Below, piece after piece: positions 10,606 to 44,675 of a stretch of DNA of 64,000 nucleotides. Source of the stretch: a candidate division WWE3 bacterium (GTDB taxonomy: Bacteria; Patescibacteriota; WWE3; UBA101185; UBA10185); contig JACPGI010000005.1 of assembly GCA_016182565.1 (NCBI GenBank), forward strand, positions 11,005 to 75,004, written 5' to 3'. A program made the position numbers and the translations under genes. Position 1 is the stretch's first letter. Every line of letters begins with the position of its first letter. The notes under the pieces were generated by a model that was not told where the DNA came from, did no database searches, and was given only the letters and a program-made list of their open reading frames with translations.

Positions 10606-11535
10606 TTAACCTAGCACCCGCTTTTTACTCTCGACAAAAGTCTCTAAGATTCTTGGAGTATTATCTGTTCGATTAAAATGGATTAGGTGGGGTTTTGCTA
10701 CCTCGGTAGTCAATTTCCCTGACATATATTTAACTTGAAAAAACATTGCAATCTGCTCTAGTCTATTTAAGAGCCAATTCTTCGAAGCAATAATAGATGT
10801 AATCTTATAATCCAAGTCTCCAAAGTTTCCAAAATACCCCCTCACCCAAGCATTTTCTTTCAAAAACCTAAAATAAGTATTGTTTTTATCAAGTACTGGG
10901 TAAAGCATCACAACCTCATGAGCTACATACAGATTTCTTTTGTTTTTTGGCCAAGCTAAATACCCCTCATCAATTAAAATATTTGGACATATTTTTTGTT
11001 TTGGGTTGGTATCAGTTCTTAACTCCCCAAGTATCTTTAAAATTAAAAATAGAAATCCACGCGTTAGCCAAACACGATTATTTTTTGTAACTACTAAGAT
11101 ATCTAAATCAGAATCTAAGTCAGCATTAAATGCTGCAACTGACCCCGTCACCCCAATAAACTGAATCCACGGAATTCGCCCCAAAATACCTGCGATTTTC
11201 TTCACTTTTTTTATTAGAAAACTACTGTTTTTCTTTCGAGCCTCCCAATCAACTGTCACGGTTTTATACAGATAAAAAAACTTCCCATCTTTTACACTTA
11301 CCTTATGCATTTTAATTAAATTTTCTAAAGCCTTACTTACAGTTGGGATATCAATTTTTTTCCTGGTTAGTAAAAAATTTAAGAGTTGGTAAAAACTTAA
11401 TGGGTAATTAAAAACGGTCCGATAACTTAAAGTTTCAAGAATCTCGCGTTCAACGCTTTTTGTGGTATTGATACTAACTACCAAATTATTCTGACTACGA
11501 TTTTGTTTTGTTTTGAATTTCTTATTTCGAGGCAT
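10606..11535 (-). CDS. Nucleotidyltransferase-fold protein (pol-beta-like NTase motif)
   Basis: GVTGSVAAFNADLDSDLDILVV fits the G[SG]-x(9-13)-DxD minimal nucleotidyltransferase motif; the rest has no recognised domain. Confidence 0.4.
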   Translation of the reverse strand: MPRNKKFKTKQNRSQNNLVVSINTTKSVEREILETLSYRTVFNYPLSFYQLLNFLLTRKKIDIPTVSKALENLIKMHKVSVKDGKFFYLYKTVTVDWEARKKNSSFLIKKVKKIAGILGRIPWIQFIGVTGSVAAFNADLDSDLDILVVTKNNRVWLTRGFLFLILKILGELRTDTNPKQKICPNILIDEGYLAWPKNKRNLYVAHEVVMLYPVLDKNNTYFRFLKENAWVRGYFGNFGDLDYKITSIIASKNWLLNRLEQIAMFFQVKYMSGKLTTEVAKPHLIHFNRTDNTPRILETFVESKKRVLG

Positions 11536-11925: not shown

Positions 11926-12537
11926 CTATTTTTTTAAATATTCTTTAAATGAAATAACAACGACCCCAAATACAAGACCTAAAACTATCCCAGCCCACAT
12001 ATCAACCCAGATATTATGAAAGGCTTTATAAACTACAGGTGAACCATCCATAACTATTAAATTTATTTTCTCATCCCCCCGCATGTTTAACTTATCTGAG
12101 GTCTTCAAAGCCTCAGCACTTAAAGTCTTCCAATATTCGCTCGCTTTTACAAAATCCTTGTCTTTAACTTGAATACTCACAAGTTGCGGAGCCGCCTCTT
12201 TGATGGAAACATTCCTTCTTGCCTCACGCAGTGTATTTTCTGTAATTGGCACACCCATTATTTCCAAGGCAGTTTTTCTTATGTCAACACTCTCCAAAAT
12301 ACCTATCAAAGTTTTTGCATAGTTTTTAGCCGTTTGCAGTGCGTAATATCCCTCATATGTATAATCGGCCTTTCTACTAAACTCGGACTCACGCGCAACA
12401 AATATAGAACCCACGGCTCTGTAACCAACAGGCACAAAGTAAAAAACTCCTAAACCAACAAGTAAACCTATAAGTGTAGACCCGGCAAGGATTCTCCAAT
12501 TATTTTTTATGTGTGTGAGTAATTCTTTTAGTTCCAT
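11926..12537 (-). CDS. Hypothetical membrane protein with N- and C-terminal TM helices
   Basis: 203-aa ORF; TM at residues about 15-35 and about 175-195; reads as a chain-length-determinant-like topology, which is speculative. Confidence 0.35.
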   Translation of the reverse strand: MELKELLTHIKNNWRILAGSTLIGLLVGLGVFYFVPVGYRAVGSIFVARESEFSRKADYTYEGYYALQTAKNYAKTLIGILESVDIRKTALEIMGVPITENTLREARRNVSIKEAAPQLVSIQVKDKDFVKASEYWKTLSAEALKTSDKLNMRGDEKINLIVMDGSPVVYKAFHNIWVDMWAGIVLGLVFGVVVISFKEYLKK

Positions 12538-12588: not shown

Positions 12589-15500
12589 ATGCCCGTAAAA
12601 GAACAAATAATAAAAAAGTCTGTCCTAACTCCAACCTTTTTAATAGCAGGTGGTGCTGGATTTATAGGTTCTCATCTTGCTGAAAAACTCCTTGAGCAAC
12701 AAGCTAGAGTTATCGTACTTGATAATTTTAAAACCGGAAAAGATATATACGTAACATCTCTTTTAACAAATCCTAGATTTGCGGTTTTTGATGTAGATAT
12801 CAACCAAGGTCTACCAAAAAATATTCAAAGTGTAGATTACATAATTCATCTAGCAAGTGTGGAGTCTTATTTGTACAGTAGAGACCAAGTAAATTTAGAT
12901 TCACTTCTCACAAATGCACTTGGAACAAAAAATTTATTAGACTTAGCACAGTCATCTGAGGCTAAGTTTTTACTCGTATCATCAATTGATGTATATGAGG
13001 GGCTTATTTCTCCGGTTAGTTTAGAGCAGTACTTTGGCCAAACTCCCGAGGAAGAAAAAAGATATTCACTGAGTGAAGCAAAAAGATTTGCGGAAGCTTT
13101 GGTCTGGGAGTTTTTCAAGAAAAATAAAACTGATGTGAGAATTGTCAGAATCCCCGAAGTTTATGGACCTAGAATGAGTCTTGGAGCAAGTGGCTCCATG
13201 GGGATGTTTCTTAGAGAGGTAATGGAAAATAAGGATATTACTATCTACGGCGAGGGTACTGAAAAAGAATACTACCTGTACATAACAGATGTTATAGGGG
13301 GATTTGTTAAAGCACTTTTTAATAAAGACACGAAAGGTCAGATATTTACAATTGCCCCAGAAGAGCCTTCCACAAGTCTTGAAGTTGCCTATCTTACAAA
13401 AAGCCTTGCTAACGCGGAAGTTAAGGTTGTATTTAATGAAGCTCCCGGAAAAATGTTTAGTAAAACTGCCAAAATACCAGATCGTGGAAATATAAGTGTT
13501 TTAAAGTGGGCACCAAAAGTAGAACTTAAGGAGGGTATTAAAAACACCATGATGTGGTTTGGATATGAACCAAATGAACACTCATTTAAACCTGCAAAAC
13601 TTATCGAAGATAAAATGATGCAAAAAGACATGAAGACTGGGCGAAGGATAGCCTCAATATTTGGGGTTTCACAGGAAGATATAGATACAAGTGGTGTTAT
13701 AAAGCCTTTAGGAAGTCTTAATTTCGCACGAAATATAACCCCAGTGCTAGCAACTGCAAAAATTACAAACGACATCAAAGTAAAACTTGCACCTATAAAA
13801 AAAGAAGAAACCACCTCAATCTGGGATTTCAAAAATGAAGGGTTAGGCTTATACAAAAATCTTATGCAAGAAAAGGAGTTACTTCCCCCAAAGACTATCA
13901 ACGATAGGTTGTTACAAAAACCTAGAGATATTCTTAAAAAAATAAGATTTATTGGGGTGAAAGATGAAATCCCTGCCGTAAGACCCCCAATTCAAATATC
14001 ACCTGCAAATCTGCCTGGATCTGAAATCAGTCAATCTGAAAAAAATTTGTTAGCAGCAAAGCCTTGGAATTTTACTGATGCTAGTGCTAAACGAAAAAAA
14101 ATGATTTTAATTTCTGGAGTGGGAGTTTTATCAGCACTTGTCGTATTTACATGTATCCCACTACTCCAGACATATTTCTATACTAAATCTGGGATGAAAG
14201 CGCTTCAAAGCTCAGCTAATTACCTAATGCAACTTGATTCATCCAGCGCAAAAAATTCCTCAAACGCAGCATTTCAAAACTTCTACAAAGCCCAAAGAGC
14301 TATAGAAAAAGATAGATGGCTTTTTACCCTAGCAGGCAAAAAAGATTTACACACAACAACTTCCAGTTTACTTAGTTCAGCAAGTTATTTCTCAAAAGGA
14401 ACTTACAATATAGCAAAAGGATCTCAGCCTTTTACGGAAATTTGGGAAATTATAAAACCAAACACCCAGACGCAATTTAATAAAGACGCGTTTACTGAGG
14501 CACAAATAAACTTCGATGAGGCAAAAAATAATATTCAAAGAGCACAAGGAGCGTTTAAAAATGTAAACGAGATACTTATTCCAGCAAGCCAAAAAACGAA
14601 TCTTGAAACTTACAAAAATGCCTTAAATTTGATCTCTTCAAACATAGATACGGTTTCTCTTCTTGCAACAGAAGTACCAAATCTACTTGGGGCTAAGGAT
14701 ACCCCAAAAAGATACATGGTGCTTTTTCAAAATTCCAATGAGATTAGACCCACAGGCGGATTTATTGGTTCATATGCGATTGTGGAGTTTAAAGACGGCA
14801 AAATCCAAAATCTTACAATTGATGATATTTACAATCCGGATGGCCAAATCGATGTTAGAAATATACAAGTAGCACCGCCTGCTACACTCGGCAAACTTTT
14901 GGATGAGAAAAAACTTTATCTTCGAAATGCAAACTGGGATCCTGACTTTGGTAAGACTTCCGAAACCATAAAAGATCTGTACTTTAGAGTAACTGATAAA
15001 ACACTCGATGGGGTGATTGCTCTTGATTTAAACTTTGCCCAAAATTTATTAAGAGTCACAGGGCCAGTTTATCTAACTGCCTTTAGTGAAGAAATTTCGG
15101 CAGATAATATGTATGAGAGAGCACAATTTCATAGTGAATTTAATTATAAAGATGGCTCGGATCAAAAAAGAGCTTTTCTTACTATCCTGGGAAGTAAACT
15201 CCTCGAAAGTATTTTTGCCTTACCAAACACAAAAATTCCGGAACTTGCAAAAGAAATTGACACAGCACTTACAGAAAAGCATCTATTACTTAATATTCAA
15301 AACAGTGCTTTTGGAGCTGAGTTACAAAAAAGATTCTGGGATGGAAGTGTGGTAAAAGTTGAGCCAAGTGCTGCCGACTATCTGTATGTAGTGAATGCCA
15401 ATGTGGGTGGAACAAAAGCCAATTATTTTGTAAAAAACGATATGCAGTACAACGTGTCTTCAAAAACAAGGGATGGAGTTTTAAGAGCTGAGCTTAAACT

Positions 15501-15951
15501 TACCTACAATCACACAGGCACGAGTATGGCTTGGCCGGGAGGAACAGGTGCTTCTATACAAACTATCAATACGACTGGAGAAGAAGCCAGTATCGATATT
15601 CAAAAAGAAATAACTATAGATAAGGTAGGAAACTATGTATCTTTTGAAAAACTAATTGAGGTACAACCTACTCAAAAGGTAATACTTACTATCACCTATG
15701 ACATACCACAAAACCTAGCTATCACAAATGAACACAAAGAGTACAAGCTCTTCTGGCAAAAACAGGGCGGTACTACAGATGACAGTTTTACTTTCAAGTT
15801 TGAGCCTCCTTTTGGTACAACAATACAAGAAACCTCTACTAAATACTCCCAAAGCTCAAATGGGATAAAAATGGAAAATTCTCAGGGCAGTACAACTGAA
15901 GTTCGGGGCAATTTAAACAGTGACTTCTGGTACTTGGCAAAACTTAAATAA
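12589..15951 (+). CDS. Fusion protein: N-terminal NAD-dependent sugar epimerase/dehydratase (SDR, Rossmann) domain, a TM helix, and an extracytoplasmic domain of about 600 aa with no recognised fold
   Basis: GGAGFIGSHLAEKLL glycine-rich NAD motif within about 320 aa of UDP-sugar epimerase/decarboxylase-like sequence. TM helix at about residue 505 (MILISGVGVLSALVVFTCIPLL). A long C-terminal domain follows, containing ...RPTGGFIGSYAIVEF.... Confidence 0.6.
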   Translation: MPVKEQIIKKSVLTPTFLIAGGAGFIGSHLAEKLLEQQARVIVLDNFKTGKDIYVTSLLTNPRFAVFDVDINQGLPKNIQSVDYIIHLASVESYLYSRDQVNLDSLLTNALGTKNLLDLAQSSEAKFLLVSSIDVYEGLISPVSLEQYFGQTPEEEKRYSLSEAKRFAEALVWEFFKKNKTDVRIVRIPEVYGPRMSLGASGSMGMFLREVMENKDITIYGEGTEKEYYLYITDVIGGFVKALFNKDTKGQIFTIAPEEPSTSLEVAYLTKSLANAEVKVVFNEAPGKMFSKTAKIPDRGNISVLKWAPKVELKEGIKNTMMWFGYEPNEHSFKPAKLIEDKMMQKDMKTGRRIASIFGVSQEDIDTSGVIKPLGSLNFARNITPVLATAKITNDIKVKLAPIKKEETTSIWDFKNEGLGLYKNLMQEKELLPPKTINDRLLQKPRDILKKIRFIGVKDEIPAVRPPIQISPANLPGSEISQSEKNLLAAKPWNFTDASAKRKKMILISGVGVLSALVVFTCIPLLQTYFYTKSGMKALQSSANYLMQLDSSSAKNSSNAAFQNFYKAQRAIEKDRWLFTLAGKKDLHTTTSSLLSSASYFSKGTYNIAKGSQPFTEIWEIIKPNTQTQFNKDAFTEAQINFDEAKNNIQRAQGAFKNVNEILIPASQKTNLETYKNALNLISSNIDTVSLLATEVPNLLGAKDTPKRYMVLFQNSNEIRPTGGFIGSYAIVEFKDGKIQNLTIDDIYNPDGQIDVRNIQVAPPATLGKLLDEKKLYLRNANWDPDFGKTSETIKDLYFRVTDKTLDGVIALDLNFAQNLLRVTGPVYLTAFSEEISADNMYERAQFHSEFNYKDGSDQKRAFLTILGSKLLESIFALPNTKIPELAKEIDTALTEKHLLLNIQNSAFGAELQKRFWDGSVVKVEPSAADYLYVVNANVGGTKANYFVKNDMQYNVSSKTRDGVLRAELKLTYNHTGTSMAWPGGTGASIQTINTTGEEASIDIQKEITIDKVGNYVSFEKLIEVQPTQKVILTITYDIPQNLAITNEHKEYKLFWQKQGGTTDDSFTFKFEPPFGTTIQETSTKYSQSSNGIKMENSQGSTTEVRGNLNSDFWYLAKLK

Positions 15952-16047: not shown

Positions 16048-16431
16048 ATGCCAAGAAGTAAAATTAAAATGGTACAAATGATTGAAGATAAGCAAATTAA
16101 CGAGCAATTAGCAAAATCAAATTGCTACAAATGTGGGGAAAGTTTAAACGGCGCCAAAATGACAACCATTGGAAAGCTTCCGGCAGCCGTTATAGCCCAC
16201 ACAGTGTGCCCAAATTGCCAAGCAGAAAGCATTATTACTCTAACGCTTGCGGGATCAGGTATAATGCCCCTTATCTCAGATCTTGGCCCAAGTGAAATGC
16301 AAAAATTTGCAACAAATAAGCCAACATCGTATGATGACTTGTTTAAGTTGCACGATATAGTAAAAAAAGGAAAACTATGGAAATTATTGCAGAGAAGCGC
16401 ACCGCTCTCGGAAAACAAAATAAGAAACTAA
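16048..16431 (+). CDS. Hypothetical small zinc-ribbon protein (CxxC...CxxC); overlaps the rplY start by 55 nt
   Basis: CYKCGES...CPNCQAE cysteine pairs; weak support. Confidence 0.3.
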   Translation: MPRSKIKMVQMIEDKQINEQLAKSNCYKCGESLNGAKMTTIGKLPAAVIAHTVCPNCQAESIITLTLAGSGIMPLISDLGPSEMQKFATNKPTSYDDLFKLHDIVKKGKLWKLLQRSAPLSENKIRN

Positions 16432-17090
16432 GAAAAGATAGGAAAGTTCCTGGCGTAATCTACGGGAAAGGTATGGAATCTGTAAATGTTATGGTAGGCC
16501 TTCTTGACCTTGTTAAGACATTTAAAGGGTCTGGGGAGTCTACCTTAGTTGACGTGTTGTTTGATGGCAAGAAAGAAAAGGTCCTTGTCACTGAAGTACA
16601 AGTTCACCCAGTAACGGGCAATCCGATTCACGCAAGCTTTCACAAAGTAAACTTAAAAGAAAAAATTAAAGCAAATGTGCCTGTGGTTGCTATAAACGAA
16701 GAGTTAAATGCCTTTGTTAAAAGCGGCGAGGGTATGATTTTGTCTTTGATAAACGAAATCGAAGTAGAGGCTTTACCTGCAAACTTACCACACAACTTTG
16801 AAGTAGATGTAAAAGATTTGAAACTTAATGAGGGCATCACAGTAGGACAGTTAAACTTTGATAGAACAAAGGTTGAAATTGTTGATTTGGAAGATGATGA
16901 GCTGGTTGTAAAACTTGATAGTGCAAAGATGGCTGAAGAAGTAGAAGAGGTCGTAGCCAGTGAAGAGGAATTGGTGGCAGGTGTTGAAGCAACCAAAGAG
17001 AAGAAGGAAGAAGATAGTGAAGAAAGTAAAGATGGTGAAAATAAGGTAAGTGATAATAAGAGTGGAAAAGATAAGAGTGAGAAGAAATAG
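16377..17090 (+). CDS. rplY: 50S ribosomal protein L25, general stress protein Ctc form, with an acidic/lysine-rich C-terminal tail
   Basis: MEIIAEKRTALGKQNKKLRKDRKVPGVIYGKG... matches the L25/Ctc N-terminal domain; C-terminal EEVEEVVASEEEL...KDKSEKK extension. Confidence 0.85.
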   Translation: MEIIAEKRTALGKQNKKLRKDRKVPGVIYGKGMESVNVMVGLLDLVKTFKGSGESTLVDVLFDGKKEKVLVTEVQVHPVTGNPIHASFHKVNLKEKIKANVPVVAINEELNAFVKSGEGMILSLINEIEVEALPANLPHNFEVDVKDLKLNEGITVGQLNFDRTKVEIVDLEDDELVVKLDSAKMAEEVEEVVASEEELVAGVEATKEKKEEDSEESKDGENKVSDNKSGKDKSEKK

Positions 17091-17169
17091 TCAGGGTTGT
17101 AAATAAGCTTTTAAACATTTCGCGGAAAATTTCACGTTTAAACAAAATTAAAAAGTCTTTTTGTAGAAA

Positions 17170-17200
17170 CCCCGACAAGTACAATATCGGGGCTTCTTGG
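17170..17200. terminator. Hairpin between convergent rplY (+) and the higher-GC island gene (-); possible bidirectional terminator
   Basis: CCCCGA-N11-TCGGGG followed by CTTCTTGGTT. Confidence 0.4.
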
Positions 17201-17230
17201 TTGAAAATTACTGGTGTCAGATGGTCTGGG

Positions 17231-18031
17231 TCAGGCGACGCCGAAAAGTTTCGACAATGTCCCATTCGCAAGCAATATGAACACCACCACCACGACGACC
17301 ATAAATCCAATAGGGCCAAATATGGCTTTTGACCAGGCAGGGGCTTCATGCATTGCAGTGAGTCCAAGCGCAAGTTTGATGTCGTTTTTCTGCACAGTTT
17401 CCGCGTGCTCAATCAACCGCATCTGCACATCTTTTGCATTATCAAGGGCGGTCGTGGAAACCTGTTCCAGAGCGGCAATTGATTGAAGCTGGACTTCGAT
17501 ATCTTGTTGATGTTGCAATTCCTGGTACGCCAACTGCATCGCAAGAACCAGGTCAGTCCCTTCAAGCCGGCGCATCTGCACAGATAGGGATGCCATAACA
17601 GCTTCACGCGTTGTCCCCTTCACATCGAGAAAGGGCGTTTGGCCGGCAACTTGTTTCGCAATTAAATCTGAAAGGATCACAAGTTGAGCCTCAGCAACAC
17701 CGCCCGTGGGATCATTTGCGGTGAGACTCATCAAAGATGGCGAAACTGAAATTATGTCGCTGGATGGTAACCAAATAATGGCTTCGCTTGGATCAACCAT
17801 GGTTATAGCGCCGTTACCATCGCCACTCAACGCCACGTTGATCTTGGTAACACCTGGAAAGGCGTCACCGATCGAAGTCAGAATTTGTTCCTCAGTAAGG
17901 TCTATACCACCGCCAATTGCGACAGTGGGACCGGTGGGTGCATCGGTACCATCAGTATTCCACATGAATGCCGCGGCAATTGCAATCACAACGATTGCCA
18001 AACCAATCAAAATAGAATTTCGTGCTTTCAT
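17231..18031 (-). CDS. Hypothetical bitopic membrane/secreted protein encoded in a higher-GC island
   Basis: 266-aa ORF with an N-terminal signal anchor (ILIGLAIVVIAIAAAF) and a C-terminal TM (GFMVVVVVVFILL). Codon usage is rich in GCC/CTG/GGC, unlike the rest of the window. Confidence 0.55.
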   Translation of the reverse strand: MKARNSILIGLAIVVIAIAAAFMWNTDGTDAPTGPTVAIGGGIDLTEEQILTSIGDAFPGVTKINVALSGDGNGAITMVDPSEAIIWLPSSDIISVSPSLMSLTANDPTGGVAEAQLVILSDLIAKQVAGQTPFLDVKGTTREAVMASLSVQMRRLEGTDLVLAMQLAYQELQHQQDIEVQLQSIAALEQVSTTALDNAKDVQMRLIEHAETVQKNDIKLALGLTAMHEAPAWSKAIFGPIGFMVVVVVVFILLANGTLSKLFGVA

Positions 18032-18237
18032 CTTTTCTCCTTTTCCCTATCCTTAGCTAGAAATTAGCCAGCAGGAAAGAGTCTATGTTATAGCTTGAAT
18101 TAGTTGGTTGAGAATTGGTGTTGGGGAGAGTTTAGTACAAGTGCATTTTGAAGTCAAATAAACTTTTTGTCATAGAGATATAAGAGGTCGATGTCAAGAA
18201 GATAAGACATCGACCAATTTTAGTTATCACTTACAAA

Positions 18238-20025
18238 TCATGACCCAGTAAAGGCGCTTAAAATACTCAGGGCGAGTGGTAAAAGCGCTCCAGAGGTCAG
18301 TGCGGCTGTTCGCACAAAGTCATATCCACGTTCCAAGCCTCTACCTTGACCCCCATTCAAGAATCCGGCGATAAAGGCAAAGGGCAGCACCAGACTGAGG
18401 GTTACCCATAGGGTCTGATTTACACCTGGGGCCAGGAATAAAGCGAGAAGCAGAATCACAATCACTGCTACCCAACCCAAACCGTAAGTAATCCAATCGG
18501 CATATTTAAGCATCTTTTCAGAGTCGTAATGCTTAAATGTGGCGTGGCGACGTCTCGTTTCCTGAAAGTCGAAGAATAAGATCGGAACCACAGTAACGAG
18601 CGCGGCAATCGGCAAACCGAGAAGCCCAACCAGCGTTTTGCTTGTAGGGCCAAATAGGTAATTTACCACGTATACTGCCATGATGTTGTTACCCCAAGAC
18701 CACTCCGTAGAATGTAGAAACGGATTAGCCAGAATGGCAAGATAACGATCTCTGTCTGGTACAGGCATTTGGGTGAAGGCTTTCAGGTTAAATTTGGCTT
18801 CGGATAACAAATTAACAATAGAGCCAACACCTAAAGTCAACACAAAATTTATAACCATTGGTGCCCAGATCATCAACGGGCTCGTGGCGCTTTTGTTATC
18901 TATTAAGACACGGACAATCAGGGCAATAAAGATAAAAAACCCAGAGAGTCCAGCAACCCAGTGGCGTGTAAACAACTCGCCCAAAGCAACCAGCAAAACA
19001 ACCCCAATCAAAAACATTTCGAGCTTTCCTAGTGGCTGATCTTTAGACATCAGGCCGCCGGCGCCAAGCTTATAGGTCAGGGAGTTCAATTTATCGATTA
19101 AGGGTTTGACATTCTCGTCCACCACACCTGCTACCGGGGCAACAGTTTGCCCTGCTACAACCCAATCAAAATAAGCTTGGGGAGCAAAACAAACATCTCC
19201 GGTTCCCTGATCCCAATAGGCATACACTTGTTGCTCGTTGTAGTCACGTCCCACTACTTTAGTTACCACATACAGGTTGGACTGTTTTAATTCCCCACAA
19301 TCTGCAGATTCCATGTCAATACTTCCAAATCCCTGATTTCCTATGTAACTGGGGGCAGGTTGAAGCTGATATACCACAGGCAAACCATCCGCAGTACGCT
19401 CCACAGGAGGTCTGTTCAATGGGCTGGCAGAATTGCCAGTCAACCCACTACTGACTGGGGAGTCACCGGGTAATAAATTAAGCAATGTTGGGCCAAAATA
19501 CAACCCTGCCAATAGCAGTACAACCGCAAGAAGTGAAAAACCAACAATTTGAGCGGTACGCCACATGCTTGCCTTTTTCTGCCCTGCATCAAATGCACTT
19601 GCTTCAGCGCTTTGTTTCTGCTTTTTCTCTTTACTTGCACTACGATAAGCCGCCATTGCCTCAGCCTGTGCATCACTAATAGAAACGCCAGCAAGCTTTG
19701 CAAGTTCCGGAGGCATATCAGTAAGATCATCTGCTTCAAGGTCTGGAAAAACCTCCTGAAGCTGGGAAACAGCATCAGCAAATTTTGTACCTTTTCCGTT
19801 CCACTCCATAAGAATCTGGAGGGGATCGAAAGCTGGTTTGTCAGCAGTTGCAGGTTTCACGGGCAATTTGCTAAATGCCCCCAACAGATAATGGGTAACA
19901 GCCGCAGTCAAATCCTTAAGACGCGGGTCACCTTTTGCGTTTGCAATCCACCTTTCCTCTATCTGAGCCAACGTTGCTAAAAACAATGTAGCCCGTTGCT
20001 CATCAGTGTATACAGTTGTAGCCAT
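18238..20025 (-). CDS. Hypothetical polytopic membrane protein encoded in a higher-GC island
   Basis: 595-aa ORF with a soluble N-terminal domain of about 150 aa, one TM, an extracytoplasmic segment of about 150 aa, then 8 or more TM helices. GC looks roughly 50 percent. Confidence 0.55.
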   Translation of the reverse strand: MATTVYTDEQRATLFLATLAQIEERWIANAKGDPRLKDLTAAVTHYLLGAFSKLPVKPATADKPAFDPLQILMEWNGKGTKFADAVSQLQEVFPDLEADDLTDMPPELAKLAGVSISDAQAEAMAAYRSASKEKKQKQSAEASAFDAGQKKASMWRTAQIVGFSLLAVVLLLAGLYFGPTLLNLLPGDSPVSSGLTGNSASPLNRPPVERTADGLPVVYQLQPAPSYIGNQGFGSIDMESADCGELKQSNLYVVTKVVGRDYNEQQVYAYWDQGTGDVCFAPQAYFDWVVAGQTVAPVAGVVDENVKPLIDKLNSLTYKLGAGGLMSKDQPLGKLEMFLIGVVLLVALGELFTRHWVAGLSGFFIFIALIVRVLIDNKSATSPLMIWAPMVINFVLTLGVGSIVNLLSEAKFNLKAFTQMPVPDRDRYLAILANPFLHSTEWSWGNNIMAVYVVNYLFGPTSKTLVGLLGLPIAALVTVVPILFFDFQETRRRHATFKHYDSEKMLKYADWITYGLGWVAVIVILLLALFLAPGVNQTLWVTLSLVLPFAFIAGFLNGGQGRGLERGYDFVRTAALTSGALLPLALSILSAFTGS

Positions 20026-20217
20026 TTTATCCTCTCGATTCTTATTTATAGTCTTACAAAATGTGGTTTTGTTTGTATGATTAGTTCTTCAATGTTGGCC
20101 GAATAATAAACCTAAAATTGTCTCATAGCAAATTAATGCTTTTTTGCAGCTAAAGTCAGAGTATAAGAGTAATTTTTAATAAAAACTGTGCAACAAGATA
20201 ATACTAAATCGGCTCCT

Positions 20218-22521
20218 CTAAACCTGCGGCCACTCATTCACCACAAGTTCTGCCTCATCATCACTTTTCATATACCCCCACAGTTCCTCAGTCACAAACG
20301 GCATAAATGGGTGCAATAACTTCAAACAGTTTTTAAACACGTATCTAAAAATAGATAGAGCAACATCTTTATCTTGCCTATCTTTGATGTGTTCTATATA
20401 AGAAGCTGCAAGTGAATCCCACATGAAGTGATATATTTTATCGCCAGCTTCACCAAACCTATATTTCTCTAGTTCGGTATCAATTTCGCCAACTAGCTTA
20501 TGCAACTCCCCAACAATTTTTCTATCGGCATCATTTCCTCGCGCTAACACAACATCAGAATATTCCGGAACCACTACTCCACTGCTTTCCTCCAACATAA
20601 ACATAAATCTTGTCATATTCCACAATTTATTTGCAAAGTTACGAAAAGCTATAACTTTATCTTTTGGAAAAGCAAAGTCCTTACCATTTGCTGTACCTGA
20701 AATAAGTCCCATCCTCAAAGCATCGGTTCCGTACTGCTCTTGGTACTCTTCCGGGTTTATGACGTTACCAAGACTTTTACTCATCTTTTTGCCGTCCAAT
20801 GCTTTTACAATCCCGTGCAAATATACATCTTTAAACGGGGATTTACCGGTAAGATATATCCCAAACATAATCATCCTTGAAACCCAAAAACGTATTATTT
20901 CCCAACCCGTCTCCAAAACACTTGTAGGATAAAAATAATTAAAATCCTCTGAGTCCGGATAGTGCAAAGTAACAAGAGGCCACTGACCACTACTAAACCA
21001 AGTGTCAAAAGTATCAGTTTCAGGCAAAAAATCCTCGGCAGTACTATCACTAAGTTTTGGATCCTCACTACTTATCACATACTTTGCATTTTTTGGAGCT
21101 ATCAAGGTCTGTAAGCCGTTTTTAATTTCTGCAAAATTATGGTCTTTTAGTAAGTCGCCCAATGTCCCATTTAACACTTTCCCATCAGCGCTCAAAAAAG
21201 ATACAACAAGTTCGGGATTTTCTTTTGCGCTATACCAAACGGGAATTCTGATCCCCCATACAACTTGCCTACTTATTGGCCAGTCACGCATTTCTTCCAT
21301 CCACTGCGTATATGTAACTTCACGCCACTTTGGGTATATTGTAATGTCTCCATTAAGTACAGCATCAAGCGCTGGTTTTTTAAGAGTTTCGACTTTTACA
21401 AACCAGTTAGGAAGAACCATTGGTTCTATGTCTCCTCCTTTGTAGGATACAGAAACGCCGTGCACATATTTTTCATCAATTTTTTCGATAAAGCCTTTGG
21501 CCTGCAAAATTTCTACTGCTTTTTTTCTAGCTTTAGTTACATAAAGGCCAGCAAGCTCTCCAGCTTCAGGGATATTTAAGACTTTTCCACGCATATCTAT
21601 TGCGGTAAGGATTGGTAAGTTGTGCCTTCTTGCTACATCAAAATCATTTTTATCATGGGCCGGGGTAAGTTTTACAACACCAGTTCCAAAAGCAGGATCC
21701 ACAAAGCTATCGGCAATTATATTCATAGTAGCGCCGGTTAATGGATTTGAAACCTGTCTTCCTATAAGCCATTTTTTGGATTCATCACTTGGGTTAACTG
21801 CCAAATGAGTATCGATAAAAATAGGCTCAGGGCGCACAGTAGCACATACCACAAATTCTACTTCACCATCTTTCCTATCAAGAAGAGGATACCTAACATA
21901 ATAAAAGGGGTCATTTCTTTCTTCAGTTTTCACTTCAAGATCAGCAAAAGTCGTACCATCTTTTGGAGAGAAGTTAACTATGTAATTGTCTCGGTAAATG
22001 AGTCCATCATCATGCATTTTTTTGAAAGTTGCATGAACTGTTTTTATGACGTGTGGATCAAGTGTAAAAGTATATCTGGACCAGTCAACACTTGCCCCCA
22101 TTTTTTTAAGCTGATCTTCTATTATTCCTTTATTTTGCTGAACAAATTCCCAAATATTGTTATATAAAGTTTCTCTATCAAAATCAAAACGAGATTTACC
22201 TTGTTTTTTAAGTTCTCTTTCGTAGGTGACCTGCGTTTCAAAACCAGCATGATCAGTGCCAGGAAGCCATAACGCACTATAGCCTTTCATTCTTTTCCAG
22301 CGAATTAAAAGATCTTCTATTGCTACCATGAGTACATTTCCGGTGTGCATTCGCCCACTTGCATTTGGTGGAGGAAGAACAATTGTATATGGAATCTTCT
22401 TTGGATCGCGAGTAGCCATAAAAAGACCTTTTTCTTCCCACATCTTATAAATCTTTGGTTCTATTTCTTTGTGATTAAATTGTTTTGGTAGCTGGGGTGA
22501 CATCTTGTCAGATTTTAACAT
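20218..22521 (-). CDS. valS: Valyl-tRNA synthetase, short form lacking the C-terminal coiled coil
   Basis: PPPNASGRMHTGN (HIGH-type motif), LWLPGTDHAGFETQ, VDWSRYTFTLD, GLIYRDNYIVNFSPKDGTTFADLEV and KMSKSLGNVI all match class I ValRS signatures. Confidence 0.75.
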   Translation of the reverse strand: MLKSDKMSPQLPKQFNHKEIEPKIYKMWEEKGLFMATRDPKKIPYTIVLPPPNASGRMHTGNVLMVAIEDLLIRWKRMKGYSALWLPGTDHAGFETQVTYERELKKQGKSRFDFDRETLYNNIWEFVQQNKGIIEDQLKKMGASVDWSRYTFTLDPHVIKTVHATFKKMHDDGLIYRDNYIVNFSPKDGTTFADLEVKTEERNDPFYYVRYPLLDRKDGEVEFVVCATVRPEPIFIDTHLAVNPSDESKKWLIGRQVSNPLTGATMNIIADSFVDPAFGTGVVKLTPAHDKNDFDVARRHNLPILTAIDMRGKVLNIPEAGELAGLYVTKARKKAVEILQAKGFIEKIDEKYVHGVSVSYKGGDIEPMVLPNWFVKVETLKKPALDAVLNGDITIYPKWREVTYTQWMEEMRDWPISRQVVWGIRIPVWYSAKENPELVVSFLSADGKVLNGTLGDLLKDHNFAEIKNGLQTLIAPKNAKYVISSEDPKLSDSTAEDFLPETDTFDTWFSSGQWPLVTLHYPDSEDFNYFYPTSVLETGWEIIRFWVSRMIMFGIYLTGKSPFKDVYLHGIVKALDGKKMSKSLGNVINPEEYQEQYGTDALRMGLISGTANGKDFAFPKDKVIAFRNFANKLWNMTRFMFMLEESSGVVVPEYSDVVLARGNDADRKIVGELHKLVGEIDTELEKYRFGEAGDKIYHFMWDSLAASYIEHIKDRQDKDVALSIFRYVFKNCLKLLHPFMPFVTEELWGYMKSDDEAELVVNEWPQV

Positions 22522-22577: not shown

Positions 22578-23930
22578 ATGCCAAATAATAAAAATGCACA
22601 AAATGAAGAAGACGTCGATGAAACACTAAATGAAACGGTTGAAAAGGAACCACCTGAACACAGAGAGGCAAGAAAAGAGATGTTGGACGCATTGGCTGAG
22701 GCGGCAGACATCAAACAGATGCCATGGGAAAGTAAAGAAAATCTTGCTTGGCTTCTTGCGGGATATATACAAAGCAAGCCAGACTTAGCAGATAAAGATC
22801 GCATAGATTTTATCCTAACTAAACCGGAGGGAGAAAGATTACTTTATAAAGATGCTTGGAAAAGCTTTCAAGAAAAAATAGACCAAATTGACCCTAGTGT
22901 TATAAAAGAAAAAATTATGGCGCTTGAGAAAAATCGGGACCTATATATGCAATTAGAAAGGGGGATCCAAAAGAGACAAAGCCAGATTGAAGTGGCAATT
23001 TCCGGTAGATACACCCAGGAAGAATTAGAAGATGCTAAACAACTTGGTGAAATACTTCTGAAGGCTATAATCAAAACCAGACCAACAAAACCTGGGGATG
23101 CTTTAGACGGCAATTTTATTGGTATGGAAATCAATAGAGCTTCTTTAAAAAACAATAGGTTAGTAGCGATAAGTAGTAAGGTTGGGAATATGAGACCTGG
23201 TGATAGGCCACACGAAATAATACTTCCAGAAAACCTACATATATCAAGAAATGATAAAGCAATGGAAATAGGTGATAGAACACTAAGACTAGGGGACACA
23301 ATCAACATTCCAGTATTTGAAAGGCCAATCGACAATAAGACGCCTGCAAAAACCAAGGGGTGGATTTCAATTAAACTTGGGATATCAAATAAAGAGGCAG
23401 AAGCTATAAGACAAAGTTTTATATATAGAAAAAAAGGTGAGGAAGGAAATAAACCAGGAGTTGAATCTCCTGTAGAAAAAGGTAATTCAAAATTGAAAGC
23501 GGCAGAAGAAAATGAGGAACTACCAGTTAACATAGTGGTGAAACAATACTCAGGAACAAACATCGAACAAGAAGAAAAAAATATTCTAAAAGTAGATGGG
23601 CGTATTCCACTTAGTGTAAGGGGCAATGCCGGTACTTACACAATCTTAAAATTGGAGACCTACGAAACTGAAACTGTTTTTAAAAGTGCGGAAGAGCGAG
23701 AAGCTAGAATAGACTCAGTTGCAAAAGAACTTGCCAAAAATATTGCAGAAAACACAGGTGACTTACCCCTTGAAATAATACTTAGACAGATACCAAGGCT
23801 TTGCAGAACCATACCAGACATGGATAACGGAGATATATCCCCAAGAACCCAAAAATATCTAAGAGAACTTGCACCAAGACTTGAAAATGCATTAAGACTA
23901 AAATATACAGGAACTGTCAGACCAAAATAA
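22578..23930 (+). CDS. Hypothetical charged soluble protein
   Basis: 450-aa ORF, K/E-rich, no TM and no recognised motif. Confidence 0.4.
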   Translation: MPNNKNAQNEEDVDETLNETVEKEPPEHREARKEMLDALAEAADIKQMPWESKENLAWLLAGYIQSKPDLADKDRIDFILTKPEGERLLYKDAWKSFQEKIDQIDPSVIKEKIMALEKNRDLYMQLERGIQKRQSQIEVAISGRYTQEELEDAKQLGEILLKAIIKTRPTKPGDALDGNFIGMEINRASLKNNRLVAISSKVGNMRPGDRPHEIILPENLHISRNDKAMEIGDRTLRLGDTINIPVFERPIDNKTPAKTKGWISIKLGISNKEAEAIRQSFIYRKKGEEGNKPGVESPVEKGNSKLKAAEENEELPVNIVVKQYSGTNIEQEEKNILKVDGRIPLSVRGNAGTYTILKLETYETETVFKSAEEREARIDSVAKELAKNIAENTGDLPLEIILRQIPRLCRTIPDMDNGDISPRTQKYLRELAPRLENALRLKYTGTVRPK

Positions 23931-37880: not shown

Positions 37881-40469
37881 CTATTGGTTTTTCTGGTCTT
37901 GATTGTTTGCTAAGGGTATTGTTCCTTGATCGATTTTAGTAGGTATTCCCTGGGATAAATCTTGTTTGATACCTCCCGGCATCAAAATCTTAGGACCACT
38001 ATTGTTGGTGTTTGCATTCTGTCTTTGCTGTCCTGGTATTACTGAGCTGTTAGGTCCAGTATTTAAGTTTTGTTGCCTTGGGGTTTGATAGCCATCCACC
38101 AGTTGATTAGGTGCAATTCCTTGACCAAACGGGGTTTTTGCCACGACGGTATTTTGTGGTTTTTTAACTTCAGCATTTGTTGGTATATGTGGTACTGGAA
38201 TTTTTGGCACGTGTTGTTGAGGTGTAGGTTGTCTAGATTGTTGTTGCTCAATGCTATTTTGTTGCGGTTGATTAGATTGGTTTAACTGATTTTGTTTAGG
38301 CTGACCTACCATAGTAGTATTTATTGGAGTTCTTTGTTGAGGGTGATTCTGTGGTGAAGAGAAAGCTTTACCTTGTGAATTAGAAACTTGAGCATTAGGT
38401 GCCGTGGCTACAGGTATTTGTGGTTGGTTTTGTGCCTGTGTTTGTAATGGTGGTTGTGGTGTCACCGGTTTTGGTGTTGGCATGGGAGTATTAAACTTTG
38501 GTGCCTCATACCTTGGTGCTACTCTTTGCGGAGTTTCTTCTTCAGATATGTCATCATTTGGGTTTTTTGGTTCAGGGATTTTAGCATAACTTTGAGTGTC
38601 AACTATCTCGAATGGTTTATAAGAAGCCCGTTGTTCTTCCACAAGTTTTCTTTGGTTTCTTTCTTCTTTCATTTTTAGTATTTCCTCTGGATTTGTTGTA
38701 ATTAGCTTGTATTCCTCTTCTGAAGCAATTACTTTAATGGCAACGTGATTTGCACCAGCAAAAAACAAACCCTCACCCCTGTCAGCAGATAATAGCAATC
38801 TTTTTTCGCCTTCGGATAGATAGAAAACTTCTGCAATTTTATCTATAGCTGATGGGTGTTGTTTCAAAAGTATTTGAATAGAGGAGTTACTCACAATCGC
38901 GTGGCCATAATCAGACTTTAAAAAGTCGTCCACGTCTTGAGTAATTGTAGTAAGACCCAAATAATATTTTCTGGCTCTTTTTGCGATACCAAACAAAAAC
39001 TGGGCGCTGTCGTTGTTGGACATGAGGTACCAAGCCTCTTCCACAATTAATATTCGTTTACGCAAATCCTTTCTAATAGTTGTCCATACAAAGTCCAAGA
39101 TCATATAGAAGGCAATTGGTCTTAGAGCGTCTTCCAAATGTTTTGTAGAGAAAACAGTCATATCCGCCGTAAGGTTTATATTAGATTGTGAGTCAAATAT
39201 TCCAGTCATAGAACCACGGATAAATTTCTCTAACCTTTCTGCCATACCCCGTGCTTCTACTTCAGCACCACCAAGCAGTACTTTATATAAATCTTCCATA
39301 ACTGGAGGTTCTTGTGAACTTTGGGTATCAGGGTCGGGAGTAATACCTTTTAATCTATAAGTTTCAATCAAGGCTCTATCAAGAATGGCATCTTCTGTAG
39401 GGGAAAGTGTTCCCATCATAAGCCTTAAAAGTGTGTGCAAAGATAAAAGTTTTTGACCAAGTTCATTTTGACCTTCAACAGCAATGCCAGATAAGTCAAA
39501 AGGATTAATCTTTGCCGGAGAGCTTGGTGAGAAGTTTATGTAGTTACCACCCAAAGCTTCACAGACCGGTTTATACTCTTCTTCTGGGTCGATGATAAGA
39601 ACTTGTGTTCCAAAGATGATAGAACGCAAGGCTTCAAGTTTAACAACAAAAGATTTACCAGCTCCGGATTTAGCAAAAACTACGGTGTTAGCGTTTTCCA
39701 AAGAAAACCTATCAAAAATGATAAGAGAACCGTTGTGTTTATTAACTCCGTACATTATGCCTTCATCTGAAGTAAGGTCTGATGAGGTAAAAGGGAAAGT
39801 TGTTGCAAGACTTGTGGTATCCATGTTTCTTGTAATCAAAAGTTTATCCATTGCTGTGGGAACTGTGGATTGAAATGCTTGTTCCATTTGTAAAGTGGCT
39901 TTTTTGGAAATAAGAAGTAGGGATCCAAGTGTGCCTTCCAGTTTTTTAGATATGTTTTCAAGCTCTTCTAAAGTTTCAGCAGGTATAGTGATGTAAAAAG
40001 AAAATTGGAAAAACTTCTCGATACCCTTTACAAGCTGCTCTTGTAAAGTGTTTGCGTCTTCTAAAGCAGCAACTACTACTGGATCTGCAATTTTTCCCCT
40101 TTCAGCATCCCCCCTGACAGTAGCCTCAAGTTCTGTAATTTTTCTTTTTAAATCGTCAAGTACCCCTTGAGCTTTTACAGGATAATAAAACATTGAGATA
40201 TCAAGTGAGTGATCGAAGTTAATAATAGGTGCAAGCCAGTCAGCCCCTACAAACCTAGGATATCCTGACACAAAAAGTGTTCGAAAAAACATTCCCCCAA
40301 CCCGCATGTGATTAAAATCAACTTCAATTGCAGAAGGGGCAATAATGTCTCTTATATCAACCATTCCTCTTGCAATCACATCTCCGGCATTTTCCTTTGG
40401 TGCTTCTGGTGTAAGCTTTGGGTCTACTTTTGGTTTTTTATTAAATAATGTAAATTTTGGCATTGGCAT
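37881..40469 (-). CDS. virB4: Type IV secretion ATPase, VirB4/TraC/TrbE family, with a C-terminal Gln/Pro/Asn-rich low-complexity tail of about 280 aa
   Basis: Walker A VVFAKSGAGKSFVVK and Walker B/DEAW-like ILIVEEAWYLM; overall length and order match VirB4. The tail (approximately nt 37881-38720) reads ...PQPPLQTQAQNQPQIP...QSNQPQQNSIEQQQSRQP.... Confidence 0.8.
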   Translation of the reverse strand: MPMPKFTLFNKKPKVDPKLTPEAPKENAGDVIARGMVDIRDIIAPSAIEVDFNHMRVGGMFFRTLFVSGYPRFVGADWLAPIINFDHSLDISMFYYPVKAQGVLDDLKRKITELEATVRGDAERGKIADPVVVAALEDANTLQEQLVKGIEKFFQFSFYITIPAETLEELENISKKLEGTLGSLLLISKKATLQMEQAFQSTVPTAMDKLLITRNMDTTSLATTFPFTSSDLTSDEGIMYGVNKHNGSLIIFDRFSLENANTVVFAKSGAGKSFVVKLEALRSIIFGTQVLIIDPEEEYKPVCEALGGNYINFSPSSPAKINPFDLSGIAVEGQNELGQKLLSLHTLLRLMMGTLSPTEDAILDRALIETYRLKGITPDPDTQSSQEPPVMEDLYKVLLGGAEVEARGMAERLEKFIRGSMTGIFDSQSNINLTADMTVFSTKHLEDALRPIAFYMILDFVWTTIRKDLRKRILIVEEAWYLMSNNDSAQFLFGIAKRARKYYLGLTTITQDVDDFLKSDYGHAIVSNSSIQILLKQHPSAIDKIAEVFYLSEGEKRLLLSADRGEGLFFAGANHVAIKVIASEEEYKLITTNPEEILKMKEERNQRKLVEEQRASYKPFEIVDTQSYAKIPEPKNPNDDISEEETPQRVAPRYEAPKFNTPMPTPKPVTPQPPLQTQAQNQPQIPVATAPNAQVSNSQGKAFSSPQNHPQQRTPINTTMVGQPKQNQLNQSNQPQQNSIEQQQSRQPTPQQHVPKIPVPHIPTNAEVKKPQNTVVAKTPFGQGIAPNQLVDGYQTPRQQNLNTGPNSSVIPGQQRQNANTNNSGPKILMPGGIKQDLSQGIPTKIDQGTIPLANNQDQKNQ

Positions 40470-40519
40470 TTTTATTTCACTTTATCTTAACCTACTCACT
40501 CTTGTGTAATTTCCACCTT

Positions 40520-41224
40520 TTATTCTTCCAAGATTGCAGGTTCAACAATTGCTGTTCTATAGTCTCCAATATCAGTTCTTATTCTTTGTGCTTCTGCTGA
40601 TCCTGGGTTATATATTTCGAAAAGTAATTCTACTATTTCCTGAGTGGATAGTCTTTTAGCTTTTATACCAAGTCTTCCAAACTCCCCAACTACATGGTCC
40701 ACTTTTGGTAAAAGATCGGGTTTTGCTCTTTTTAGTGCAGACTCTGTATCCACTTTTACTCGTTTCGTGTGGGCTCCGAACATCCTACCCATCCAATCAA
40801 ACGGAGTAGATCCCTTTTCGTGAAATCCTGTACTTCCGGAAGGCACAATTACGTAAAACTTTTTTGATAAAACATCATTTACCTTCACCAAGTCTTGTAC
40901 AAACTTACGATATGATTGGATCTGTTTTTTTAAAAGCGGGTCACTTAAACCCTGCTCAACTTTCACTATTTTTGTGATGTAGTTTGAAATATCGACTCTT
41001 TTTGATCTAATTACAATTTGTATCGGATAAGTTATCGAGTTTAGAAGCATAGAAAAGGCGGCAATCAAAGCATCTTGCTCCATTTCAGAAAGAAGTGCAA
41101 AGTTTACAGCAGTTGTTGAAATAATTGCAGCTACCTCCCCTGTTTTTAGTATAATTAAGTCCTCTTTTATGTCCTCTACATCTAGATGTTCTTGTGTTGT
41201 TGATCTGATTTCATTTATTGGCAT
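40520..41224 (-). CDS. Hypothetical cytoplasmic protein in the T4SS-like operon
   Basis: 234-aa ORF directly upstream of virB4 and co-directional with it; no TM helix. Confidence 0.4.
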   Translation of the reverse strand: MPINEIRSTTQEHLDVEDIKEDLIILKTGEVAAIISTTAVNFALLSEMEQDALIAAFSMLLNSITYPIQIVIRSKRVDISNYITKIVKVEQGLSDPLLKKQIQSYRKFVQDLVKVNDVLSKKFYVIVPSGSTGFHEKGSTPFDWMGRMFGAHTKRVKVDTESALKRAKPDLLPKVDHVVGEFGRLGIKAKRLSTQEIVELLFEIYNPGSAEAQRIRTDIGDYRTAIVEPAILEE

Positions 41225-41272
41225 ATTTTTTTGCTTTGTTAGTTTTTTAAATTTGAGTTTTGCTTACCAAAT

Positions 41273-43066: not shown

Positions 43067-43110
43067 GTATTATATTTTAGAGTAGAAGATATTGAAAGGA
43101 TGTGTAGAAA

Positions 43111-44601: not shown

Positions 44602-44675
44602 ATTTCAATAAGTTAATATTTCTTTAAGAATCTAGGCTATGCTATTTGGTTTAGCAAGAAATCCAAAAACTTTTT

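Follow-up and report, generated by a model that had tools for sequence, protein, structure and literature searches.

A two-gene island of foreign composition at the valS/rplY junction of a candidate division WWE3 genome

Two orphan genes between valS and rplY

We analyzed a 64,000-nt stretch of DNA (the window) from a candidate division WWE3 bacterium (assembly GCA_016182565.1, contig JACPGI010000005.1, positions 11,005 to 75,004), centering on a small island that separates two core genes; all coordinates are those of the window. The genes encoding ribosomal protein bL25/Ctc (rplY, 16377-17090, plus strand) and valyl-tRNA synthetase (valS, 20218-22521, minus strand) converge on a segment of ~3.1 kb between their stop codons. 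This segment holds two minus-strand genes encoding proteins of 266 aa (17231-18031) and 595 aa (18238-20025), both present in GenBank as proteins of candidate division WWE3 bacterium (HYV31_02735 and HYV31_02730), the contig being 88 kb long. The identities of the flanking genes, given in a preliminary description of this DNA, were confirmed by NCBIfam equivalogs above their cut-offs. The rplY product scored 116 bits against TIGR00731 (cut-off 73) and contains Pfam domains Ribosomal_L25p and TL5_C, and the valS product scored 786 bits against TIGR00422 (cut-off 612).

The two genes differ in composition from their surroundings. The guanine-plus-cytosine (GC) content of the whole window is 0.374, and 500-nt windows outside the island give a background of 0.370±0.029. 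The 266-aa gene has a GC content of 0.492 and the 595-aa gene of 0.469, and the 500-nt windows within 17.25-20.0 kb range from 0.446 to 0.504, or +2.7 to +4.7 standard deviations (SD). One further spot in the 64 kb, at 60.5-61.25 kb, exceeds +2.5 SD. The contrast of 50 percent against one third drawn earlier by eye was thus right in direction and sharpness and overstated in size, the true values being ~0.47-0.49 against 0.37, and the spacer between the genes (18032-18237) is indeed AT-rich, with a GC content of 0.350. At third codon positions (GC3) the 266-aa gene reaches 0.48 and the 595-aa gene 0.43, compared with 0.298±0.027 for 41 other genes of the window, and in both genes all three codon positions deviate from the host.

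Codon choice points the same way. The earlier impression of a codon usage rich in GCC, CTG and GGC holds as an enrichment (fractions per amino acid of 0.29, 0.17 and 0.25 in the island genes and 0.17, 0.05 and 0.15 in the other genes, CTG being counted for Leu), and none of the three is the dominant codon. The largest synonymous shift is in Arg (CGT 0.43 vs 0.11, AGA 0.17 vs 0.51), and further shifts are seen for ATA (0.18 vs 0.37) and CAG (0.54 vs 0.31). When 44 genes of the window were scored by codon likelihood conditional on the amino-acid sequence, the 595-aa gene had a z of -7.85 and the 266-aa gene of -7.39. Forty-one of the remaining genes fell between -2.3 and +2.5, the sole other outlier being the gene at 60455-61165 (z=-6.95). 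Both flanks are host-like by these measures (rplY, GC3 0.34 and codon z -0.99; valS, GC3 0.31 and codon z +0.78).

The deviation extends to the proteins, with GARP/FYMINK ratios of 1.20 and 1.17 against 0.62±0.14 (z≈4), which is the amino-acid make-up of a higher-GC proteome. We considered whether high GC could be a mere effect of the amino-acid content of membrane proteins. This was ruled out, as the polytopic membrane proteins of the window itself have low GARP/FYMINK ratios (0.38-0.71) and normal GC3 and codon usage, as in the gene at 61237-62967 (GC3 0.29, codon z -0.45).

Since the source is a metagenome-assembled genome (MAG) and the GC content changes abruptly at the gene borders, the island might be a fragment of a higher-GC organism wrongly joined to a WWE3 contig during assembly or binning, an alternative that the preliminary description had raised. 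We reject it because two separately assembled runs carry both junctions. Logan contigs from SRR12113420 (18.1 kb) and SRR12113422 (13.0 kb) are colinear with the window over both borders, have the same gene order (proS-ORF-valS-595-266-rplY, ORF being an open reading frame) and match the window at 99.96% identity with zero mismatches inside the island, which is identical across three assemblies of the WWE3 population. In addition, a repeat search found no repeat at the borders able to mislead an assembler, the high-GC portion matches the extent of two ORFs exactly, both with Shine-Dalgarno sites of the host type and bordered by AT-rich spacers, and analogous islands occupy the same site in independent MAGs and metagenomes (see below). 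A chimera is extremely unlikely.

Both products had been described as membrane proteins, and hydropathy agrees, giving ~8 transmembrane (TM) segments for the 595-aa protein and two for the 266-aa protein. The predicted layout of the former comprises a ~159-aa cytoplasmic N-terminal domain, TM1 (residues 160-178), a ~155-aa outside loop and six to seven more TMs; its only two Cys residues, 243 and 279, both fall in the outside loop. Searches of Pfam, PHROGs, NCBIfam, PADLOC and PDB sequences with this protein gave no match above noise, the sub-threshold noise for both island proteins consisting of CUE, VexB, P450 and ToxS at E≥0.009. Its single-sequence AlphaFold2 (AF2) model is of low confidence (predicted local distance difference test, pLDDT, 47.0), and a Foldseek search of PDB with this model found nothing below E=0.9.

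When 1.84 billion representative proteins were searched exhaustively with phmmer, only two relatives of the 595-aa protein were recovered. The first, P0003 (472 aa, N-terminally cut), lies on a 3.5-kb JGI contig and is 29% identical over 460 aa (E=1.4e-33). The second, P0004, is a fragment on a 1-kb Logan contig (E=1e-6), and its upstream frame extends the match to 41% identity. A word-indexed protein search, also run with the three-sequence profile, returned self matches only, and no relatives turned up when JGI metagenome contigs were scanned with the profile or in two scans of IMG/VR. The alignment of the three sequences (A1) shows conserved motifs (EWSWG, LFxPTxxTLV, DFxETxRR, ADW and RGLERxxDxVR), and the Cys pair is conserved in P0003. 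The 595-aa protein belongs to a real, extremely rare family under purifying selection. It probably acts at the envelope with a disulfide-bonded outside loop, as the topology model suggests. The genes of both relatives have a GC content of 0.45-0.50 and are followed by an AT-rich spacer (0.34-0.37) and then by a gene for a lipoprotein-like exported protein. In both loci (L083, 1920-3539; L084, 864-1016) this next gene 3' of the relative encodes a protein with a lipobox, and the two exported proteins are unrelated to each other and to the 266-aa protein; a direct comparison of the latter with the gene downstream of the P0003 homologue likewise gave no similarity. An arrangement of a polytopic protein with an exported partner may be conserved.

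For the 266-aa protein, hydropathy predicts one TM near each terminus (6-24 and 236-254) and, between them, an acidic part of 211 aa that would be exported, and the AF2 secondary structure of the exported part, at low confidence (pLDDT 48.6), is a beta region followed by long helices. We infer a hairpin-anchored, exported coiled-coil protein at the cell envelope. Pfam, PHROGs, NCBIfam and PADLOC gave no match, the best PDB hit was not significant (E=0.03), and a word-indexed search of 5.8 billion clusters, which is less sensitive than exhaustive phmmer, found only the protein itself.

The spacers, ribosome-binding sites and terminator hairpins of the island look host-like. A GAGAGGA ribosome-binding site lies upstream of the 595-aa gene and an AAGGAG site lies 6 nt 5' of the ATG of the 266-aa gene. 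The minus-strand spacer at 20026-20217, which separates the 595-aa start from the stop of valS, is AT-rich and has no stable terminator (RNA fold z -0.29), so read-through from valS into the 595-aa gene is possible. A promoter-like TTGCTA-17-TATTAT is found in it at 20131-20103, the count of the promoter scan being not above that in shuffles. The minus-strand spacer between the two genes (18032-18237) contains sigma-70-like hexamers (18173-18145 and 18157-18129) at a frequency not above chance.

The perfect 10-bp inverted repeat reported earlier between the two genes is present at 18186-18215, 23 nt after the 595-aa stop (arms GGTCGATGTC, 18186-18195, and GACATCGACC, 18206-18215, with a 10-nt loop). 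In the minus-strand transcript it folds at -20.9 kcal/mol (z=-5.0). The window contains three perfect hairpins of this kind, all intergenic, against 0.73±0.81 in shuffled sequences; the other two lie at 61182-61213, 17 nt after the stop of the foreign-looking gene at 60455-61165, and between pilin-like genes. The tail of the 18186-18215 hairpin (UCUUAUAUCUCU) is pyrimidine-rich with an imperfect U-tract, and a consensus terminator scan (loops ≤8 nt, T-run required) did not call it. We read the repeat as a putative terminator-like or mRNA-stabilizing element and not as a recombination site. A 13-bp stem-loop with two G·U pairs on the minus-strand RNA follows at 17165-17197, 34 nt after the 266-aa stop; the RNA of 17150-17235 (minus strand) folds at -24.5 kcal/mol (z -4.2, with 0 of 200 shuffles equally stable). 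This stem-loop looks terminator-like and separates the 266-aa gene from the convergent rplY. Relatives free of cargo have a single hairpin in their short valS/rplY spacer. On its other side, the 3' end of rplY (16950-17090) encodes a C-terminal tail of ~50 aa that is rich in Glu, Lys and Ser; this DNA has a strong purine skew (GC skew as high as +0.66), and the length of the bL25 tail varies among relatives.

The valS/rplY junction in relatives

We collected 160 loci from GTDB species genomes and from JGI and ENA metagenome contigs by a scan seeded with ValS. Convergence of valS and rplY is a widely conserved feature of WWE3 and Microgenomates. In ~29 loci, some of them probably redundant between the two collections, the two genes are back to back, as their tblastn matches end 115-425 bp apart; the same measure gives 3133 bp in the window. 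DNA alignment of the empty-site spacers did not resolve the exact insertion borders, the relatives being too divergent.

At least six other lineages carry a different, higher-GC cargo in the same gap, made up mostly of membrane or secreted proteins. In the closest relative found (L085; ValS 77% and ProRS 82% identical), the GC content goes up from 0.36 to 0.50 some 100 bp past the valS stop. A multi-TM ORF of 324 aa (GC3 ~0.6 in the measured part) extends from there as far as the contig end, and UniRef lists its product under WWE3. The gap of L088 spans 5.3 kb (GC 0.47 vs 0.39) and holds six co-directional genes for membrane proteins or lipoproteins, one of them SPFH-like, and that of L028 spans 5.6 kb (0.47 vs 0.385) and includes an M23 peptidase gene. 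A 1.4-kb gap in L010, L091 and L096 (0.43 vs 0.34) encodes a 359-aa orphan with two TMs. GC climbs from 0.45 to 0.52-0.60 over at least 4.5 kb in L093 and from 0.41 to 0.50 in L008 and L090, and L005, with genes for an SLT transglycosylase and an SPFH protein in the gap, is a milder case. The envelope character of these cargoes is predicted from hydropathy, signal- or lipobox-like N-termini and low-confidence models. High-GC segments in the cargo-bearing loci are confined to the valS/rplY gap, none being found in the surrounding 16-20 kb, and the gap in distant Microgenomates holds conserved genes of host composition, not islands.

The cargo sets of the different lineages are almost wholly non-homologous to one another, with two weak links. 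Comparison of the window cargo with that at the same site in relatives (phmmer, a hidden Markov model of alignment A1, and blastp) revealed no homology, and neither protein has a homologue in the 162 related loci (~2 Mb). Because ~29 loci are empty while several WWE3 lineages hold unrelated cargo, the junction is a recurrent insertion or replacement hotspot in the lineage. The preliminary description had overlooked both this recurrence and the third deviating gene, at 60455-61165. The contigs of L085 (4007-5101), L008/L090 and L006 all end within ~1 kb past the valS stop, just inside the high-GC cargo; a strain-variable region that disrupts assembly would be expected to leave such ends.

These comparisons bear on whether the two genes could be native and vertically inherited, their composition having drifted upward through selection on amino acids or expression or through GC-biased gene conversion where recombination is frequent. 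GC-biased gene conversion is known in bacteria, the spacers and translation signals of the island are host-like and its tetranucleotide deviation is only moderate, all of which would suit such a history. However, ~29 relatives have an empty site and the closest one has a different gene there, no homologues occur in ~2 Mb of related loci, and the host's polytopic membrane genes keep normal GC3 and codon use. Gene conversion would also have raised the GC content of the spacer, which is 0.35. We therefore consider drift of native genes very unlikely.

Origin and route of acquisition

Both genes are real and are physically linked to the host chromosome. Their horizontal acquisition is supported because their composition is foreign, the site is empty in ~29 loci and the cargo is nearly without relatives. 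The locus also shows the generic features of a genomic island, namely deviant composition, absence at the syntenic site in relatives and a sporadic distribution of the cargo. We favor a model in which the ~3.1-kb segment between valS and rplY is a horizontally acquired, non-self-mobile island of envelope cargo in a WWE3 genome, and judge it probably correct. In this model, DNA would have been taken up and the cassette then inserted, as a new arrival or in exchange for an older cassette, through homologous recombination within the core genes on either side. The donor would be a gene pool whose GC content evolved near 45-50%. Each cargo gene would be translated from its own Shine-Dalgarno site, the 595-aa gene being followed by the 10-bp hairpin and the pair ending at the hairpin shared with rplY. 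Both products would sit at the cell envelope and would probably change surface properties relevant to contact with phages or partner cells.

Several points weigh against this model. The sole relatives of the 595-aa protein lie on anonymous contigs of 1-3.5 kb. Once normalized for GC, the tetranucleotide deviation of the island is present and moderate (z≈2.3), and the spacers are host-like (GC 0.35), which would fit long residence or AT-rich intergenic DNA of a donor alike. The envelope function is predicted from hydropathy and low-confidence single-sequence models (pLDDT 47-49). Among the loci found, no relative exceeds 80% ValS identity, which bears on the time of insertion, on variability within the species and on scars in the flanks. 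Finally, an unseen mobile element common to the lineages, as opposed to random donors, could be the reason why their cargo is uniformly higher in GC.

The island itself is not self-mobile and lacks the hallmarks of a classical mobile island, a prophage or an integrative and conjugative element (ICE). Pfam and PHROGs searches found no integrase, recombinase, transposase, phage or conjugation gene in it, no tRNA gene lies near it (the nearest is >9 kb away), and its flanks contain no direct or att-like repeats, only short repeats at chance level. A tblastn search of 50,697 phage records and 72,556 plasmids, together with scans of IMG/VR contigs, gave no match to the cargo. These negatives argue against a remnant of a prophage, ICE or satellite that once targeted the junction, no longer has its integrase and att sites and carries moron-like or exclusion genes as cargo, as does the fact that the cargo is mostly non-homologous between lineages. 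In favor of such a remnant are the M23 peptidase of L028, which has matches to endolysin or tape-measure PHROGs of phages, and the SLT transglycosylase and SPFH protein of L005, although M23 and SLT domains are also found in ordinary cell-wall enzymes. The higher GC of all cargoes could mean a shared element family, and in codon usage the 595-aa gene is closer to the L088 island (correlation r=0.60) than to its own host (0.43). On balance, a decayed element is unlikely.

Bacteria of the Candidate Phyla Radiation (CPR) are generally regarded as episymbionts, and the genes could have come directly from a higher-GC host cell on which this one would live. This would be a special case of horizontal transfer, compatible with acquisition of an envelope island as proposed above. 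The composition of the cargo fits a donor pool of ~45-50% GC, and lateral transfer of divergent membrane proteins involving ultrasmall prokaryotes has been reported (Jaffe et al. 2016, as cited in PMC12455944). Against it, no near-identical sequence was found in the 5.8 billion clusters or the 1.84 billion representatives, the nearest relatives are just 29-41% identical and lie on contigs without taxonomy, and one homologue (in L084, GC 0.49) precedes an AT-rich stretch (0.34); its own genome may therefore be low in GC. We regard direct transfer from a host cell as rather improbable. The preliminary description had proposed a recent horizontal acquisition, possibly from a higher-GC host. The horizontal acquisition stands; recency and a host source are not established, because the nearest relatives are so distant and come from anonymous metagenome contigs. 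With two distant relatives for the 595-aa protein and none for the 266-aa protein in the less sensitive word-indexed search, the taxonomic affinity of the best matches gives no donor.

A wider proposal is that the junction is a lineage-wide cassette-exchange site of WWE3/Katanobacteria that repeatedly imports higher-GC envelope genes from one external pool, be it the hosts of the episymbionts or an unrecognized shuttling element. We give this a low probability.

Relation to known islands and other parts of the window

Foreign genes more commonly exceed their host in AT content, and classical replacement islands are often lower in GC, whereas the cargo at valS/rplY is higher in GC than the host. 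The kind of locus is otherwise already known, a flexible island at a core-gene hotspot with orphan envelope genes, and no new mechanism is implied. What goes beyond expectation, modestly, is the recurrent use of the valS/rplY site across WWE3, the consistently higher GC of its cargo and the extreme rarity of the 595-aa family. The closest parallel in layout is provided by hotspots free of mobile genetic elements, in which cargo occupies one core-gene interval and turns over rapidly between relatives without mobility genes, and for which turnover by homologous recombination in the flanking core genes has been proposed (Oliveira, Touchon, Cury & Rocha 2017, PMC5635113). Those hotspots were defined within species from many complete genomes, unlike the fragments of MAGs compared here at the genus or family level, whose ValS proteins are 55-77% identical. 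The replacement flexible genomic islands of aquatic streamlined prokaryotes, which encode exposed structures and for which the same recombination mechanism has been proposed (Lopez-Perez, Martin-Cuadrado & Rodriguez-Valera 2014, PMC4033161), share with our locus the single site, the non-homologous gene sets, the predicted envelope products and the atypical composition. However, the classical ones are large gene clusters for glycosylation or O-chains that every strain possesses, whereas here one to six orphan genes are found and many sites are empty. Islands linked to integrases and tRNA genes, prophages and ICEs resemble it in compositional deviation, patchy distribution and accessory membrane proteins; unlike them, it has no integrase, att repeats, tRNA target, or phage or conjugation genes. 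Genomic islands are common in Patescibacteria (PMC12455944), and the present case, a small acquired region with divergent membrane-associated proteins in a CPR genome, resembles them. Such surveys applied IslandViewer or MetaCHIP to whole MAGs, and in the parts of them consulted the valS/rplY site and its recurrent occupation are not described.

The third compositional outlier of the window, at 60455-61165 (plus strand), encodes a 236-aa orphan with four TMs (GC3 0.47). It begins ~100 nt downstream of a tRNA-Arg gene (60281-60356), is followed by the perfect 10-bp hairpin at 61182-61213 and is also present in the Logan assemblies. Pfam, NCBIfam and PADLOC gave no match to it, no direct repeats flank the gene, and its product shows no homology to either island protein.

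Next to the flanking genes of the junction, a 450-aa orphan of host-like composition (22578-23930, plus strand) lies between proS and valS. In many relatives these two genes are nearly adjacent (e.g., L014, L019 and L022), and this interval is variable too, since the spacing ranges from 85 to 1350 bp. On the other side, both Logan assemblies have an extra in-frame 48 bp at 15543/15544, within the 1120-aa gene at 12589-15951, giving 1136 aa. This difference in an epimerase+DUF4012 fusion protein may be either an indel polymorphism or a collapsed stretch. Clusters of single-nucleotide polymorphisms distinguish L001 from the window at 10981-11052 and 11971-12014.

Farther away, a cluster of host composition (37881-47900 and 48726-50435) resembles a Gram-positive-type type IV secretion system (T4SS). 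It comprises a VirB4/TraG-P-loop ATPase (37881-40469), a PrgI-family fusion protein (41273-43066), large orphan neighbors and a set of four short membrane ORFs (129, 148, 107 and 144 aa). These four are paralogs with a common GDxKA...A(K/R)xSLT motif, and they resemble VirB2/TrbC-type pilins. A VirB6-like role of the 595-aa protein with this T4SS-like cluster, 18-28 kb away, was considered and found no supporting evidence. The window also contains a tmRNA gene (55845-56233; Rfam, 143.8 bits) with the tag peptide ADENAYIAQPALVGALA.

For the biology of WWE3, the locus indicates that even in a very small CPR genome one interval, flanked by two essential genes, is reserved for swapping foreign envelope genes in and out, and such variation is expected to govern phage susceptibility and partner-cell attachment in organisms that are not yet culturable. 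The analysis also clears a MAG region of the suspicion of misassembly and flags a rare protein family, with three known members and conserved motifs, for structural work. The valS/rplY junction offers a defined locus at which Katanobacteria can be surveyed for strain-level surface diversity and possible signals of donors or hosts. If cassettes are indeed exchanged with one external pool, their composition and rare homologues could be used to trace the partners of uncultivated bacteria, and the 595-aa and 266-aa pair would be a new module for host contact or phage exclusion.

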